Part shown: piece by piece, positions 201 to 59,378 of the stretch
Numbering within the stretch: position 1 is the stretch's first letter
Layout of the letters: each line of letters begins with the position of its first letter
Program-made: the position numbers and the translations under genes
From: Octopus vulgaris
Taxonomy: Eukaryota
Length of the DNA stretch: 64,000 bases
Direction of reading: 5' to 3'
Assembly: GCA_951406725.2 (NCBI GenBank)
Contig: OX597826.1
Location: 5,270,001 to 5,334,000, forward strand
Notes under the pieces: generated by a model
Told to the model about the DNA's origin: nothing
The model's input: only the letters and a program-made list of their open reading frames with translations
Databases searched by the model: none

Positions 201-1091
201 GGGCTGGGCATGCCGTGGTTGATGATGCGCAGACACGCGCTGAGACTGCGACATCTCTGGCTCTATGTAGACGACGGTGAACAGGTGTGGTCGCCGTTTG
301 TGAGGCACGCTTTCCGCAGCTCGTCTCCATGACCGAACTGCAGTCGTGGATCAAAAAGAGGCCGAAGGAGGGGCGAATGGCACCGCGAGTGTCGCGTTGC
401 TCTCAAGCAACTCTGCCGTCCTGGGTCGACCTTGAGTGACTTCAACACAACCAAAGCATTCTATAGGGGTTTAGTGGAGGGGAGGTACGACGACGAGCTC
501 GGGGCGAACCTGGACGTCGACGAGGAGTACCTGACCCGCCTGTTCAGGACGACTTTCGGGCCAGGGCCTATGGACAACTTCCATAGATCCCTGGCCTGGC
601 AGTGCTACCGAGAAGCGCTACCCGTTCGGGATAAGCTCTACAGACACGGCTCGAGAAACACGGGGCCGACCTGCCCGAGATGCGGTCAGAGCGACGAAAC
701 CGTTCTGCACGCACTCGTGCAGTGTCCAACAATTTCCGACCTGTGGGCTTATGTCGAACAACTGCTGTCACGTGTGGGACGAGTCGGTTTATCAGCTGAG
801 TCTATCGTCAATATTGTCACGCCTCCCTCCTTCAAACGGGAAGGAAGAGCTATTTTCATCATCCCTGTGTCTATGGCGAAAGAATGTATCTGGTGGACGC
901 GTCTGAAAGGATTGGAGACAAACACTTTCCTCTCTGGTCAATCTCTCATCAACTTCTTCAAGTACCACTTGAAAAGGAAAGTGAGAGTAGAGAGGCAAGT
1001 TTTGTCTAGCGAATGTTTTAAAAAAAGATGGGTGAATGTAGCAAGAATGGCACGTATGAATGACGAAGCCACCTTGAGCATGATCCTATGA
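201..1091 (+). pseudogene. Tx1-like ORF2 C-terminal fragment with zf-RVT
   Basis: Open frame 432-1091; upstream coding continues to 201 across two compensating 1-nt frameshifts near 313 and 372. Confidence 0.8.
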
Positions 1092-1475
1092 ACCTAGAAA
1101 TTGAAAACAGAGAGTTGCTTATTCGCAAAAAAAAAAAAAAAGAAATATAACATGTGACTCCATTGACCGAGGTTACCGTGGTCTTTTCCGTAGGCTTTTC
1201 TTTCCACGGGTAAACCTCACCTGTCCTCCCCTTTACACTTCATATTGACATTTCTGTGATAACGATCCCTATTGATCAATTTAAAAAAATTTTTTTTTTC
1301 CTCTCCCCCCTTTTTTTTTAACCCCCCTTTTTTTTGTCCTCTTTCTCTCCTTTCACGATCCCTTTTGATCGAAACTCCCCTTCCTTTTTTTTTTTTTTAA
1401 ACCTTCAAAAGAAAAGCTCTACCTTGTAATTTGTTCTATCTGTGTGCAGCCCTGTGTGGCTAATAAAGAAACATA
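201..1475 (+). mobile_element. 5'-truncated Tx1/L1-clade non-LTR retrotransposon (ORF2 C-terminus + 3' UTR)
   Basis: From 201 it reads GLGMPWLMMRRHALRLRHLW (post-RT GGLG motif). ORF 432-1091 has a zf-RVT-type CCHC finger (LAWQCYREALPVRDKL...CPRC..DETVLHALVQC). T-rich 3' UTR, AATAAA at 1462-1467, (TATC)n on both sides. Confidence 0.88.
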
Positions 1476-2424: not shown

Positions 2425-3088
2425 AGTGTGGTGGGCTGGTAGAATCGTTACCATGTCGGGTAAAATTTTTAGCGGTATTTCTTTCGTTCTGATTTCAAAT
2501 TCCAGCACGGTCCACTTTGTCTCCCATCCTTTCAGGTTCAATAAAATAAGTACTATTTGAACACTGGTGTCTATATAATTGACCTGTCACCTCCACCGAA
2601 CTTGCTGACCATGTGCCAAAATTTGAAACCAGTATAATATATAACAGTAAGGAGGTGAGCTGGCAGAGTCGTTATGGCGCCGAGCTAAATGCTTAGCGAC
2701 ATTGCATCTGTGTGTACGTTCTGAGTTCAAAATTCCGCCGAGGTCCACTTTCCGTTTCTTTCTTTCGTTGTCGATAAAATAAGTACAAATTGACAAGTGG
2801 GGTTTGTGCATTGGACTTATTCCGTTCACCAAACTTGCTGGGCTTTTTGCCAAAATTTGAAACCAAGATAACAAATAGTAGTAAGGCGGCGGGCTGGCAG
2901 ATTCATTCCCACCCTGAGCAGAATGTTTATCTGCATTCCGTCTGGGTTCAAAATTCTGCCAAGAACGACATTGCCTTTAATCCTTTCGGTGTCGAAAGCA
3001 TAATTACTAATTGAATACTGGGGTCGCAGTAATCATCCTGCTCCCTCCTTTGAACTTGATGGCCTTGTGCCAAAAAACGAAGCAAATA
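2425..3088 (+). mobile_element. Three tandem full-length copies of tRNA-derived SINE family A, older short tail
   Basis: Each copy has the head ggcggcgagctggcagaatcgttag, B box gagttcaaattcc, core gcctttcatcctttcggggtcgataaa and tail ttgctggccttgtgccaaaatttgaaacc; units start near 2425, 2648 and 2882. Confidence 0.85.
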
Positions 3089-9075: not shown

Positions 9076-10369
9076 TTCTGTCTCTGTTCATCAAGCAATT
9101 CTAATTTTACATTGGATACTGGTCATGCTGACGGTTATTTTCCCAGCGAATATGGACAATATCCGTAGCGTGTGTCGTCTTTCTCCAGTGTTTTCCTTTC
9201 ACCACTTCGACATGAAGTGAGTATATTATCCTCGCCCCACCCCAGACTATATATGTATTTTGGGTCTCCAAAACACACCAGGTAATTTGTACATTAATTA
9301 GCGTAACGTTTTAATTTTGAGGTGCAGGCAACATACGTTCGTTTTGTGGCTTCTGCCTGATTTCTGTTATCTATTCATCTTATGTTTTTATTTCAGAACA
9401 CTGTAGCTGCCATACCCTTTCTCACGAGAGAAGTACTATATCTATGATACTCTCTGGGGAATATTATAGCATATATTTTCAGTTTTTATTTCGCACAGCT
9501 TTATTTATTGTTAACTGACACGTTTTTGTTTAGAAATGTACTTAGTAAAGATTTTTTATCTCACTCACTGCGTGAACGTAATACTTAAGCTGATACAAAT
9601 ATGAACTCCATGGTAAATTTTAAAGTGTGATATATTCTCTGTAGTGACTACATTTCTTTTCAAGGGATTAGAGGTTTTTCTTCCCTGTAAACCATTCTCA
9701 TCGAGTTCACCCAATTCTTTTTTATTTCTGTTGTCTTTAAATATGGTTTCACGTAAATTATTCTTTCTGAAATCTCTTTTTCGACATCTCTTTATATCCC
9801 GTTGTTTGATCTTCATTATATAGTCATACTTTTAATTGAGACAACAGAATTTTCATCCCTAATATTTGTAGAAAAGCAGTAGAGAAGTTAAGGGTAAGAT
9901 GTTTGCGAGAGGGCCGTCCACTCCAGAAGACACTTTTATTGGACTGGAAGTTGTTTTGGCTGCTGTAATATGCCTTAAAGTTTTAGAAGGATGTTGGGGT
10001 GCAACCTCAAGTGATGCAGCGGGCAGCAAACACTCCAGCTAGGCCACAGTTTGAAAGATAGGTTTTCTATTGAATCTACTTGCCTTAAACTTACACAAGA
10101 CGTTAGGAATAACTACATATAAAAGCACGTCTTAATACATATCTTTCACAGGACACTTAGTGCTGCTTTATGGAAGTGTAGAACTACAGACAGCTACAAC
10201 ATCTGGCATTGGTACAATTTTACACCTGTGAAATGGAAGAAAAAAGTAACTATCGATTAAATTGATCTATAGCTTGACAGTTATTTTATTTTATCTCTTA
10301 TCAGGAATTACGATCTGTATTGATTTGAAATCAGAATGTAAAGTGTTATGTGTAAATATCATAAGAGGA

Positions 10370-11342
10370 AATATTCTTTACTAATCTAAGCACAAAGCCC
10401 GAAATTTTGGGGGAGAGGGCCATTCGATTAGATGGACTCCAGTACGTAACTGGTACTTTATTTATCGACCCTGAATGGATGAAAGGCGACGTCATCCGCT
10501 GCGGAATTTGAACTCAGAACGTAGTGGCAAACGAAATACCTATTTCTTTATTACCCAGAAGAGGCTAAACATAGAGGGGACAAACAAGGACAGACATAGG
10601 TATTAAGTCGACTATATCGACCCCAGTGCGTAACTGGTACTTAATTTATCGACCCCGAAAGCATGAAAGGCAAATTCAACCTCGGCGAAATTTGAACTCA
10701 CACCGTTACGACAGACGAAATATCGCTAAGCATTTCGCCCGGCGTGCTAACGTTTCTTATTTCTTTATTGCCCACAAGGGGCTAAACATAGAGGGGACAA
10801 ACAAGAACAGACAAAAGGATTAAGTCGAATACATCGACATCAGTGCGTAACTGGTATTTAATTTATCGACTACGAAAGGCTGAAAGTCGACCTCGGCGGA
10901 ATTTGAACTCAGAACGTAGCGACAGACGAAATACCTATTTCAGTACTACCCACAAGGGGCTAAACACAGAGAGGACAAACAAATGGATTAAGTCGATTAT
11001 ATCGACCCCAGTGCATAAATGGTACTTATTTAATCGACTCCGAAACGATGAAAGGCAGAGTCGACCTCGGCGGAATTTGAACTCAGAACGTAAAGACAGA
11101 CGAAATACCTATTTCTTTACTACCCACAAGGGGCTAAACACAGAGGAGACAAACAAGGACAGACAGACGGGTTAAGTCGATTATATCGACAACCGTGCGT
11201 AACTGGTACTTAATTTATCGACCTCGAAAAGATGAAAGGCAAAGTCGACCTCGGCAGAATTTGAACTCAGAACGTAGCAGCAGACGAAATACCTCTAAGC
11301 ATTTCGCCCAGCGTGTTAACGTTTCTGTCAGTTCACCGCCTT
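10370..11342 (-). mobile_element. Nested array of five SINE family A units (four with Tx1-like tail, last with older tail)
   Basis: Junctions at 11107|11108, 10933|10934 and 10538|10539 (aaatagg|tatttcg) and at 10755|10756 (aaataag|aaacgttag). Confidence 0.92.
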
Positions 11343-11609
11343 CATAAAAGCAAGTATTAATTTCTGTATGTGATATCACTCATGTAAATTTTCTTAGTGA
11401 ATTCTGTACGATTAAGAACATTATATACCAGTACCATTAGTGAAAGATGTGACAGGTTATGAAATATGATAATTAATGAATAATTAGGATTAAATTTAAA
11501 TATGATTCGAACAGGTGATGGACATTTCAACGCAAATACAATCTGACTGAAACTAATGACTATGAAATATTTAAAGAAACTATTTTATGTTAAGTTATTA
11601 TGTTAGCTA

Positions 11610-26936: not shown

Positions 26937-27367
26937 GGCGGCGAGCGAGCTGGCAGAGTCGTTAGCACGCCGGACGAAATGCTTAGCGGTATTTCGTCTG
27001 CCGTTACGTTCTGAATTCAAGTTCCGTCGAGGTCGACTTTGCTTTTTCATCCTTCAGGGTCGATAAATTAAGTACCAGTTACGCACTGGGGTCGATATAA
27101 TCGACTTAATCCGTTTGTCTGTCCTTGTTTGTTCTCTGTGTTTAGCCCCTTGTGGGTAGTAAAGAAATAGAAATTAGTATATCGTCTGTCTTTAAATTCT
27201 GAGTTCAAATTCCGCCGAGATCGACTTTGCCTTTCATTCTTTCGGGCTTGATAAATTAAGTAACAGTTACTCACTACGCACTGGGGTCGATGTAATCGAC
27301 TTAATCCCTTTGTCTGTCCTTGTTTGTGTCCTCTATGTTTAGCCCCTTGTGGGCAATAAAGAAATAG
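26937..27367 (+). mobile_element. Dimer of SINE family A with Tx1-like tails
   Basis: Two units joined at ~27170-27178; gttttgaaatag repeated on both flanks (probable TSD). Confidence 0.88.
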
Positions 27368-35569: not shown

Positions 35570-36172
35570 AAATATTGTTTTCTCCTTTAGGCACAAGGCC
35601 GAAATATTTAGAGTGGGGTGCAGTCGATTAGATCGACACCAGTACGCAAGTGTTACTTAATTTATCGACCCCGAAAGGATGAAACTAAAGTCGACCTCGG
35701 CGGAACTTAAACATTAAAGACAAAAAAAAACTGTAAGCATTTTGGCCTGCGTCTAACGTTTCTTATTTCATTATTGCCCACAAGGGGCTAAACATGGATG
35801 GGACACGCAAGGACAGACAAACGGATTAAGTCGATGACATCGACACCAGTGTGAAACAGGTACTTAATTTATCGACCCCGGGAGGATGAAAGGCAAAGTC
35901 GACCTCGGCGGTATTTGAACTCAGAACGTAAAGACAGACGAAATACCTATTTCTTTACTACCCACAAGGGGCTAAACACAAAGAGGACAAACAAAGACAG
36001 ACAAACGGATTAAGTCGATTATATCGACCCCAGTGCGTATCTCCTACTTATTAATCGGCCGCGAAAGGATGAAAGGCACCTCGTCGTAAGTTGAACTCAG
36101 AACGTAACGGCAGACGAAATACCGCTAAGCATTTCGCCCGCCGTGCTCAAGTTTCTGCTTGATCACCGCTTT
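35570..36172 (-). mobile_element. Nested array of three SINE family A units
   Basis: Junctions 35945|35946 (aaatagg|tatttcg) and 35761|35762 (aaataag|aaacgttag); last unit has the older tail. Confidence 0.9.
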
Positions 36173-46840: not shown

Positions 46841-46879
46841 GAAAGAGAGAGAATAGGGTCTTTCAGGTACACACATTCG

Positions 46880-47102
46880 AGCTGGCAGAAACGTTAGCAC
46901 GCCGGGCGAAATGCGTAGCCGTATTTTGTCTGTCGTTACGTTCTGAGTTCAAATTCCGCCGAGGTCGACTTTGTCTTTCATCCTTTCGGGGTCGATTAAA
47001 TAAGTACCACTTACGCACTGGGGTCGACGTAATCGACTTAATCCCTGCGTCTGTCCTTGTTTGTCCCCTCTGTGTTTAGCCCCTTGTCGGTAGTAAAGAA
47101 AT
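46880..47102 (+). mobile_element. Solo SINE family A (Tx1-like tail) with 15-bp TSD
   Basis: aggtacacacattcg at 46865-46879 and 47103-47117. Confidence 0.92.
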
Positions 47103-48625
47103 AGGTACACACATTCGCACACATATGTATATATATGCTCATCTTTAAACTAACCGTATTTTCAATTTCCATCTAAAAAAAACACACAAAATAACAGCAC
47201 ATCTATACAAACAGCTTTATTTTTGACAAATATGTAATTGACATTGTTTCACATCAAGTCAATAAGCCAACCTAAGCAGTTTTTTTTTTGTGGTGCTGGC
47301 ACGGTTCATGTCCATTAATTTAGCAGATATACTATCGAAAGGGTTCTTTCCTTGAAAATCTCTCCTATTTCCATATCAGGGACGATATTGTCCAAACTAT
47401 GGTGGAGCGTGACTTGAAGGAAATTTTAGTCAGAAGATCTATTTCATTCAGTCCATTACTATTTATTTATTTTGTAAGCAAAATTGTATATGTTAATCGC
47501 CTGTGGTTTAGCGTCGAATAACCAGAATCATAAGTTCATGAAATAAGATACTTGACGTTATTTTTCTGATCCATTGCGCTCTGAGTTCGAATCCTACAGA
47601 GATCAACTTTGCCTATCATGTCTCAGACGTCAATGAAAAAGACTGCCAAGTAACGGAGTGGATATAATCAACCAATTCTCTCTTTACCTAAAGAACAGTC
47701 TTATTTCTAAATTATATAAAAATATATGTCGTTGTTGGTTTTGTTGTTTCTCCTTTCAATCGTGACTGAATAAGTATTCTAGCCACATCTAGATGTCAAC
47801 TGCATTCCATTGGAAACCTACATCATTTAATGTATCTCGACTTTGCCTGCTGTTTCTAGCAGATCGAGCGACCACATGGTAGCTCTCAGTCCTCACCGTC
47901 TGTGAATGCAGGAACATTATTTATAGTGATATGACTGGTTAAAGTAACCGTTTAATTTACTTGATTTTACTCCAGTACTTACTGTTGCAGAATCCACTGC
48001 ACACAAATATGTAGCCAGCAAATTCACTGATCACTTCACACACATTGACACTGTTGATACGACCATGATATATTGCGTGTACAATATTACTGAATGTGAC
48101 AGAAACTGACAAGAAAATCTTCTGGAACTGTCTGCAGAAACATTTGGAAAGAAACAAGCCGAAGTACACAGCAAACCGTATAAATTAATACGAAGCATTC
48201 GTGTCGATCTGGATAGTGGCTATATGTGATTTAATGCATACGTATTCAGTTGTTAAATGTAGCGCTGTTTTACTTTCTGTTGCCAAAAAGAGTTTATAAA
48301 TAATAAATATGCCATTTGTTATCATGCTTTGGAACAAATTTAGGTAGGTTTCTCCTGCCCAAGTAAATGCACATCTGCATCCTCAAGCGATTTTAGTATT
48401 GTCTTTTCGTAGCGTAAATTTGTATTCCCATAGTACAACATTAGCTTTTATTATTTGGTATTATTTGTGCTTTATAAGCTGCTTGAATTGAGGTTTTAGT
48501 GTCAAAATGCGAATGCCTGTCATTGTTTTAATGTATCGCGGCTTGTTCTATTCTATGTTCAGTCTGTATTATCTCTATGGGTTGTTCAATTTCACCCATT
48601 TACATCTCATTATTGCTTCTCATAT

Positions 48626-49220
48626 AAGGCGGAGACCTGGCGGAAACGTTAGTACGGTGGGCGAAATGCTTAGCTGTATTTCGTCTGCCGTTACATTCTG
48701 AGTTCAAATTCCGCCGAGGTCGACTTTGCCTTTCATCCTTTCGAGGTCGACTAAATAAGTACCAGTTACGCACTGGGGTCGACATAACCCGTTTGTCCTC
48801 TCTGTATTTAGCCCCTTGTGAGTAGTAAAGAAATAGGTATTTCGTCTGTCTTTATGTTCTAAGTTCAAATTCCGCCGAGGTCGACTTTGCCTTTCATCCT
48901 TTTGGGGTCGATAAATTAAGTACCAGTTGCATACTGGGGGGGTCGATTTAATCGACTGGCCCCCTCACCCCCAAAATTTCTGTTCTTGTGCTTAGATTAT
49001 TCTTATAAAACGACGAGCTGGCAGAAACGTTAGCACGCTGGGCACAATGCTTAGTGGCATTTCGTCAGCTTACGTTCTGAGTTCAAATTCCGCCGAGGTC
49101 TACCTTGCCTTCCAACCTTTGGGGGTCAATAAAATAACTGCCAGTTTAGTACTGGGGTCGATGTGATCGACTGCCCCCTGCTCACAAATTCCATACTTTG
49201 AACCTATAGCAGAAAAGATT
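48626..49220 (+). mobile_element. SINE family A cluster: nested dimer plus adjacent older copy
   Basis: Junction 48837|48838 aaatagg|tatttcg; separate full copy from ~49008. Confidence 0.9.
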
Positions 49221-51639: not shown

Positions 51640-52035
51640 TCTTACTCTTTACTCTTTTACTTGTTTCAGTCATTTGACTGCGGCCATGCTGGAGCACCGC
51701 CTTTAGTCGAGCAAATCGACCCCGGGACTTATTCTTTGTAATCCCAGTACTTATTCTATCAGTCTCTTTGCCGAACCGCTAAGTGACGGGGACGTAAACA
51801 CACAAGCATCGGTTGTCAAGTAATGCTAGGGGGACAAACACAGACACACAAACACACACACATATATATACATATATACGACAGGCTTCTTTCAGTTTCC
51901 GCCTGCCAAATCCACTCACAAGGCATTGGTCGGCCCGGGGCTATAGCAGAAGACACTTGCCCAAGATGCCACGCAGTGGGTTTGAACCCGGAACCATGTG
52001 GTTGGTTAGCAAGCTACTTACCACACAGCCACTCA
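51640..52035 (-). mobile_element. SINE family D, full length, internal microsatellite, (AAGAGTA)n-like tail
   Basis: Head gagtggctgtgtggtaag, B box gggttcaaaccc; 5'-half copies at 55587-55745 and 56437-56598; degenerate 3' half at 57990-58180. Confidence 0.88.
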
Positions 52036-59147: not shown

Positions 59148-59378
59148 ATTTCTTTACTATCCACAAGGGGCTAAACACAGAGGGGACGAACAAGGACAGA
59201 CAAACGGATTAAGTCGATCATATCGACCCCAGTGCGTAACTGGTACTTATTTAATCGACCCCGAAAGGATGAAAGGCAAAGTCGACCTCGGCGGAACTTG
59301 AACTCAGAACGTAGCGCCAGACGAAATACTACTAAGCATTTCGCCCGGCGTGGTAACGTTTCTGCCAGGTCGCCGCTT
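59148..59378 (-). mobile_element. Solo full-length SINE family A (Tx1-like tail)
   Basis: Complete head-core-tail; possible short TSD tgagat. Confidence 0.9.

Follow-up and report, generated by a model that had tools for sequence, protein, structure and literature searches.

Introduction

In crocodilians, 90% of SINEU-3 insertions fall into Mariner-N4 through the LINE Tx1-Mar, and the copies occur in tandem (PMC4494074). The passages of that paper devoted to this pair describe several features that recur in the octopus SINE family reported here, namely a strong target preference of a SINE attributed to Tx1-clade LINEs, TSDs of ~15 nt and tandems built by sequential insertion at the same site. 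Unlike the octopus SINE, however, SINEU-3 targets Mariner-N4 rather than its own family, its tandem units are separated by a TSD, and the same passages make no mention of a pairing between tail and site (PMC4494074). Other members of the clade, Tx1 (into Tx1D), Keno, Kibi and Koshi, insert sequence-specifically into repeats or microsatellites, and a LINE lying in (TATC)n in the 64-kb stretch of Octopus vulgaris DNA analysed here (hereafter the window) works like Kibi and Koshi. As portrayed in those parts of the paper, it is the endonuclease that determines where these LINEs insert, and they do not nest in their own family, unlike the SINE described below (PMC4494074).

Annealing of a 3' AGG has been proposed for SART1Bm, with R1Bm cited (PMC7265360). 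As in the proposal made here, the RNA would end in a short word matching the target, and annealing of this word to the nicked strand would improve accurate priming; in the sections of that paper concerned, however, the elements belong to the R1 clade and are autonomous LINEs of rDNA or telomeres, whereas here a SINE with a Tx1-like tail uses two sites within its own family (PMC7265360). Many SINE copies in tandem, and arrays of partial units, are also known from Dip and B1 multimers and squamate SINE satellites. As far as the relevant part of the source goes, Dip multimers consist of full-length units and the squamate satellites are attributed to duplication, whereas the octopus arrays show a fixed internal cut and different tails (PMC10702118). 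In an octopus genome SINEs account for 11.6% and L1-Tx1 is recently active; the word “nested” is absent from the text of that paper (PMC13282606).

A literature search, with subscription journals, Repbase and Dfam outside its coverage, returned no report of this self-nesting array type. Each ingredient has a precedent, and the combination (a SINE that targets copies of its own family, two tail-linked sites and about half of insertions involved) was not found in the literature searched. Zepp of Chlorella, a non-LTR element, reportedly inserts into earlier copies of itself and forms nested clusters; it is an autonomous LINE, unlike the SINE here.

The SINE Unit

The reference unit of the family, built from 30 near-full-length copies, is tRNA-type and 231 nt long. 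Sites are numbered on this reference as nt 48 and nt 15, which correspond to ~49 and ~16 in the earlier note. An unselected set of 664 kb, made up of 60 unselected 10-kb stretches and the window itself, holds 207 SINE units; further loci (labelled L) were fetched by targeted patterns. The unit shows several traits of a SINE2 element, being short, non-coding, high-copy, flanked by 12–17 bp TSDs and provided with a 3' tail shared with a LINE (see below). Words resembling A and B boxes lie at ~nt 11–22 and 75–85, as judged by eye against the box consensus, and neither ARAGORN nor Rfam returned a tRNA hit in the unit. The body extends to ~nt 166 and is followed by an old tail, of which there are three kinds ending in AATATT or ATTATT, or by a young tail (TAGTAA, CAATAA and, in one unit of the window, TAATAA). 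The consensus has no T4 run. The unit may resemble the Meta domain, and the MetaSINE, CORE and Ceph-SINE superfamilies, with octopus OK, OR1 and OR2, are candidate groups for it. Membership of a superfamily is marked by a conserved central domain matching the published consensus, as in the part of PMC4824008 that defines MetaSINEs.

In one copy (window 59148..59376) nt 1–90 of the head fold as a long RNA hairpin with a z of −5.35. Positions 31–43 pair with 48–60 around a 4-nt apical loop ending at nt 47, which makes nt 48 the first base 3' of the loop; nt 15 sits within a stem. As DNA the hairpin is weak (−14.7 and −14.2 kcal/mol vs −38.7 for RNA), and no significant fold was found in SINE or LINE tails. 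T43/G48 is replaced jointly by G43/C48 in 32 of 156 heads (p = 5e-22), that of window 46878-47103 being an example. This is a compensatory stem change that also deletes the GGTA target from the copy's own head; a body allele linked to G43/C48 heads was looked for and none was found. Most sampled stretches also contain another abundant family of short repeats, which has a TA/TG microsatellite inside it (window 51830-51853, minus strand).

Arrays in the Window

The arrays, solo copies and LINE of the window are listed in Table 1. The seven junctions and two off-SINE contexts named in the earlier note were all confirmed, and an eighth junction, at nt 48–49, follows the stuttered tail at 27170. 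An old terminal tail, claimed for three arrays, is indeed present in three; the fourth, 26937..27367, ends in a young CAATAA tail. This array is enclosed as a whole by a TSD of ~17 nt, and the outer TSD of 10370..11342 is 17 nt long with 3 mismatches. The TAGTAA unit of 48626..49005 has an internal deletion of ~nt 161–186. A 14-bp TSD starting GGTA (46866-46879 and 47104-47117) flanks the solo copy within 46866..47117.

Old-tail copies also stand in full-head tandems (window 2430-3034 and 49011-49172, both plus strand; L043 5607-6212), apparently through insertion into the ATT-rich tails of earlier copies.

Table 1. Features of the window, with strand and the basis or array of each.
Feature	Position	Strand	Basis or context
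Five-unit SINE array	10370..11342	-	unit parse, junction check
Full first unit, TAGTAA tail	11110-11340	-	array 10370..11342
Unit from nt 48	10936-11109	-	array 10370..11342
Unit from nt 48, CAATAA tail	10758-10935	-	array 10370..11342
Unit from nt 15, TAATAA tail	10541-10757	-	array 10370..11342
Terminal old-tail unit from nt 48	10370-10540	-	array 10370..11342
Three-unit SINE array	35570..36172	-	unit parse
TAGTAA unit	35948-36169	-	array 35570..36172
CAATAA unit from nt 48	35764-35947	-	array 35570..36172
Terminal old-tail unit from nt 15	3' end of array 35570..36172	-	unit parse
Two-unit SINE array: TAGTAA unit and old-tail unit from nt 48	48626..49005	+	junction 48836
Separate old copy with full head, just after array 48626..49005	49011-49172	+	unit parse
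Two-unit SINE array: TAGTAA unit (stuttered tail) and CAATAA unit from nt 49	26937..27367	+	unit parse
Solo TAGTAA copy (46878-47103) with TSD	46866..47117	+	sequence reading
Solo young SINE copy	59148..59376	-	head hairpin; GGTA in upstream flank
5'-truncated Tx1-like LINE in (TATC)n array	201..1473	+	zf-RVT in ORF 333-1091

Two Junction Positions and Their Link to the Tail

In the 664-kb set 33 units come directly after a young tail (25 outside the window and 8 within it), and every one of them starts at one of two places, 48/49 (27 units) or 15/17 (6 units). Exact matches genome-wide join the TAGTAA tail to nt 48 in 29,077 cases and to nt 15 in 182, and the CAATAA tail to nt 48 in 699 and to nt 15 in 1,736, an odds ratio of 397; reversed-pattern controls gave 0 matches. 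The exact site follows 53% of 54,654 TAGTAA+AGG tails and 14.5% of 11,955 CAATAA+AG tails, and these exact-pattern counts and percentages are minimum values, because such patterns overlook junctions that have mutated. Among selected loci, 2 of 123 junctions lie elsewhere (nt 65 and nt 1). The concentration of junctions along the unit is not a matter of chance. The claim that each site belongs to one tail survives as a strong association and fails as an exclusive one: the link is strong, yet TAGTAA tails at nt 15 and CAATAA tails at nt 48 both exist.

Insertion Into Older Copies

At 140 exact loci genome-wide the old head is kept and runs to nt 60, where a new full head begins. Thirty nested loci, from 28 separate arrays, were read, and most show the same structure: an old head or earlier junction, a 13–16 nt TSD from nt 48, a full young copy, and the rest of the invaded unit from nt 48 onwards. 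L095, L108 and L117 are among the exceptions. Both TSD copies have private changes in common at L103, L115, L069, L118 and L040. Over nt 17–47 of 17 nested loci, most of them chosen for exact inserted nt 1–16, kept heads diverge at 64 of 435 sites and inserted heads at 24 of 493 (0.147 vs 0.049, p = 3e-7). Young copies have thus been inserted into older genomic copies at fixed sites, and these TSD-bearing loci bear out the site-specific invasion of older heads by young subfamilies that the earlier note had inferred.

The relative ages agree with this order. Upstream units are less diverged than the old-tail unit downstream in 19 of 25 pairs, with the reverse in 5 (0.049 vs 0.076, p = 0.0017), while the 49 young–young pairs show no order of age (21 vs 20, p = 0.31). 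A TAGTAA-type tail precedes CAATAA 21 times, and the reverse arrangement occurs 3 times. The invaded old units (n = 29) comprise 27 oldB, one oldA and one oldC; oldA and oldC heads mostly read GGCA or AGCA at nt 48–51 and mostly lack both GGTA and AGAAA. Outer TSDs could be scored in 11 of 33 arrays and 4 of 9 solo copies, numbers that give no power for ageing by TSD. A search for orthologs of window 9600–11600 in the contigs of four runs, taken from three further organisms, was swamped by paralogs (~240,000–565,000 records per run), and among the matches listed none spans the array.

Could the arrays descend from one or two master multimers? Forty-six invaded oldB units have no clades in common and share private changes as uninvaded copies do, which argues against a few master dimers, and no such descent was seen. 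Composite dimers copied as units may nonetheless account for part of the seamless class (below). Near-identical neighbours make up 5 of 72 young–young pairs, so that local duplication explains only a minority.

Two places (G000:C10:17996023-17996504 and C14:84691111-84691409) carry a 64–66 bp unit of head and TSD repeated 8 and 5 times, to all appearances a SINE-head minisatellite born from nested insertion. At L040 (3626-4041), L089, L154 and L176, SINE pieces of opposite orientation lie beside or inside another copy, head-to-head or tail-to-tail; these are possibly inversions or a further mode of insertion.

The Upstream Join

Most arrays are seamless, and in the unselected set 2 of 24 first units keep the target head (several of the 24 are truncated). 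The earlier note had inferred that the 5' end joins by homology. Old 61T/63T alleles are found in the upstream unit in 1 of 12 cases only, and of 20 arrays whose last unit is old, 3 have G43/C48 heads. A join at the cut site, within the TSD overhang, is thus not supported as the rule: in most cases either the head is new or the seam is situated closer to the 5' end. An RNA conversion tract was considered as the source of old-type 61T/63T after junctions and rejected, these alleles tracking the family of the downstream unit. Heads ahead of an old unit are more diverged (60/612 vs 118/1808), with p = 0.009 when pooled and p = 0.11 per element, and a separate comparison of older-head signal in seamless arrays gave p = 0.24. 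This weak extra divergence is as expected if the seam varies within nt 1–62.

At L207 and L204 long tracts of private changes are common to the upstream and the next unit, and sharing exceeds that of shuffles in several bins; such tracts could reflect copying at insertion or later conversion. The inserts of TSD-bearing loci prove no younger than those of seamless arrays (0.041 vs 0.046, p = 0.34), which gives collapse at a later time no advantage over a join made during insertion, though collapse may still contribute. Template jumping or the copying of dimers is possible behind part of the seamless class.

Target Words Outside the SINE

TSDs were scored at 39 of 86 off-SINE 3' ends examined (38 with classed tails) and measure 12–24 nt, with a mode of 16. 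Once 7 that start in TA repeats are set aside, 19 targets of TAGTAA-type tails and 12 of CAATAA tails are left. The former begin GGTA(TT), with 16, 13, 15 and 16 of 19 matching at positions 1–4, and the latter A(G)AA, with A at position 1 in all 12; TSD starts thus divide by tail into GGTA and AGAA, and the echo of the junction context in off-SINE insertions, noticed at two places in the window, extends to these scored TSDs. None of 26 off-SINE CAATAA ends extends to AGAAAC. At off-SINE targets of TAGTAA tails the bases at −2 and −1 lean weakly towards A,T (10 and 12 of 18), and the target logo is flat past +6. TSDs beginning TAT account for 7 of the 38, and both young tails are found in (TA)n microsatellites too (L044, L072, L019, L051), a third target class.

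Where the junction and the upstream target copy disagree within the first 6 nt, the tail word of TAGTAA-type elements stands at the junction 11 times and at the target once, a comparison that is selection-biased at positions 1–2 and gives 4 vs 1 at positions 3–6 alone. For CAATAA no such excess appears (4 vs 3). The one unusually intact stretch of invaded oldB copies is nt 48–53 (2/110 vs 14/120), and no extended recognition is seen at nt 54–63 (19/152 vs 21/151). Specificity through annealing of read-through RNA, one of the two sources the earlier note had considered, is likely for a short word of 4–6 nt, and annealing over a longer stretch is not directly supported.

The preference for SINE copies is far larger than such a word predicts. 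Hand arithmetic on present-day site counts, with small numbers, gives a bias per site of ~46-fold (26 nt-48 junctions vs 3 off-SINE GGTATT insertions, with 55 SINE vs 291 other sites), of 158-fold at the level of GGTA, and of ~160-fold for AGAAA (5 vs 3 events). A match of 4–6 nt under-predicts the bias ~50–150-fold, so a further determinant is needed, which may be homology between RNA and target, Pol III-bound chromatin or the hairpin.

The Presumed Partner LINE

Over 42 nt the young SINE tail shares 79% identity with the 3' end of the window LINE (1430-1471), and several LINE-like copies have 3' ends that match it at 79–86% over 36–42 nt. The window LINE is presumed from this resemblance to be a relative of the SINE's partner. 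The family yields 34,031 first-look candidates with many open ORF2s of 1149 aa. A full copy (L151 2819-8292, minus strand) has ORFs of 680 and 1149 aa with APE, RT and zf-RVT domains; two ORFs with APE, RT and a C-terminal zinc motif fit L1 and Tx1 alike, and the LINE looks Tx1-like by its domains together with its microsatellite targeting. In the 25 loci inspected out of 30 retrieved, every LINE 3' end runs into TATC or TA repeats. The LINE is abundant, with many intact ORF2 copies and tandem arrays within (TATC)n, for which it is apparently specific. Related families with different tails occur at L072, L074, L039, L076 and L048.

Tail-pattern searches did not find a LINE with the SINE's exact tail; one gave 2 hits (L155 being the end of a TATC-type LINE) and a second gave 43 loci, two of which were read, both SINE variants. 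None was found sitting at nt 48 of a SINE. RTE, Dong-R4 and R1 partners were dropped once the SINE tail had matched an APE/RT/zf-RVT LINE; the presumed partner looks Tx1-like rather than R1.

Origin of the Arrays

We give a probability of roughly two in three to the reading that young SINEs insert into older family copies at nt 48 and nt 15, likely through target-primed reverse transcription by a Tx1-type LINE enzyme, with the site likely chosen by pairing of the RNA 3' end and seamless joins made by homology. The last 4–6 letters of the SINE RNA would pair with the nicked DNA and so choose the site. Because the unit has no T4 run, Pol III would be expected to read past the tail into the element's own TSD or the next unit; the RNA would then end in the parent's target word, the preference would be inherited, and the tail variant would mark the lineage for its site. 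Homology of the SINE RNA or cDNA to the target copy, or Pol III-bound chromatin, would add the bias towards SINE copies. Full-length cDNA would usually join the upstream head by homology 5' of ~nt 43 to give seamless arrays, a minority of insertions would keep both heads, and slippage and unequal exchange would later duplicate some units. More speculatively, and with less than even odds, the RNA could act as a heritable guide: its read-through end would record the parent's site, one founder at nt 48 could have started a self-reinforcing homing lineage with the Tx1 enzyme, and the G43/C48 variant could have escaped invasion.

Site choice by the endonuclease alone, with two Tx1 LINE families (one cutting at GGTA, one at AGAA) having moved the two tails at different times and RNA pairing incidental, seems to us unlikely. 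Targets in the Tx1 clade are commonly set by the endonuclease and can pass to SINEs, according to the passages of PMC4494074 on these elements, and several Tx1-like families with related tails are present here, one strictly tied to (TATC)n; none, however, was found with the exact SINE tail or at nt 48. The weak bias at −2 and −1 would suit such a cutter, but it mismatches the SINE head, which has G,C there, and a logo flat past +6 cannot yield the 50–150-fold preference for SINEs. The tail word is also present at junctions where the target lacks it.

We consider slightly less probable again an origin at the level of RNA, in which a SINE RNA that is cleaved or stalls at the hairpin loop (nt 47/48) serves as template and the reverse transcriptase then switches to the 3' end of another RNA, or in which read-through dimers are copied whole, genomic nesting being then a small TSD-bearing class. 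The place of nt 48 directly after the apical loop of a strong hairpin fits this, but nt 15 lies within a stem, and proven genomic insertions use nt 48 too. It draws further support from the lack of a T4 run, from the young alleles at 43–63 in most first units, and from L117, where an old head and full copy are followed by unique DNA starting GGTATC, like a composite moved whole. It would nevertheless require old-tail RNA to be mobile during the young burst, and the downstream old units are more diverged, with no common clades among the 46. Local tandem duplication or unequal crossover through short tail–head matches is very improbable as the main source of arrays and was set aside as such: units within one array differ in subfamily and tail, TSD-bearing nested loci exist, and the target words recur at solo copies. 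Its part is a secondary one, visible in the near-identical neighbours, the ~64 bp head repeats standing 5 to 8 in a row at two places, and the private-change tracts shared with the next unit at L207 and L204. Overall, the earlier note's interpretation is largely upheld, although neither a join at the cut site nor long annealing is supported.

Implications

If the favoured reading is right, the target choice of a retroelement would be switchable and heritable through a few RNA letters while the enzyme stays unchanged, with a bearing on programmable non-LTR insertion tools. The octopus arrays would supply dated natural events by the tens of thousands in which to examine 5' joining with homology between cDNA and target, a poorly understood step, and repeat annotation would split such arrays into many false families. 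The SINE family could also use itself as a safe place to insert, taking up about half of its own insertions.
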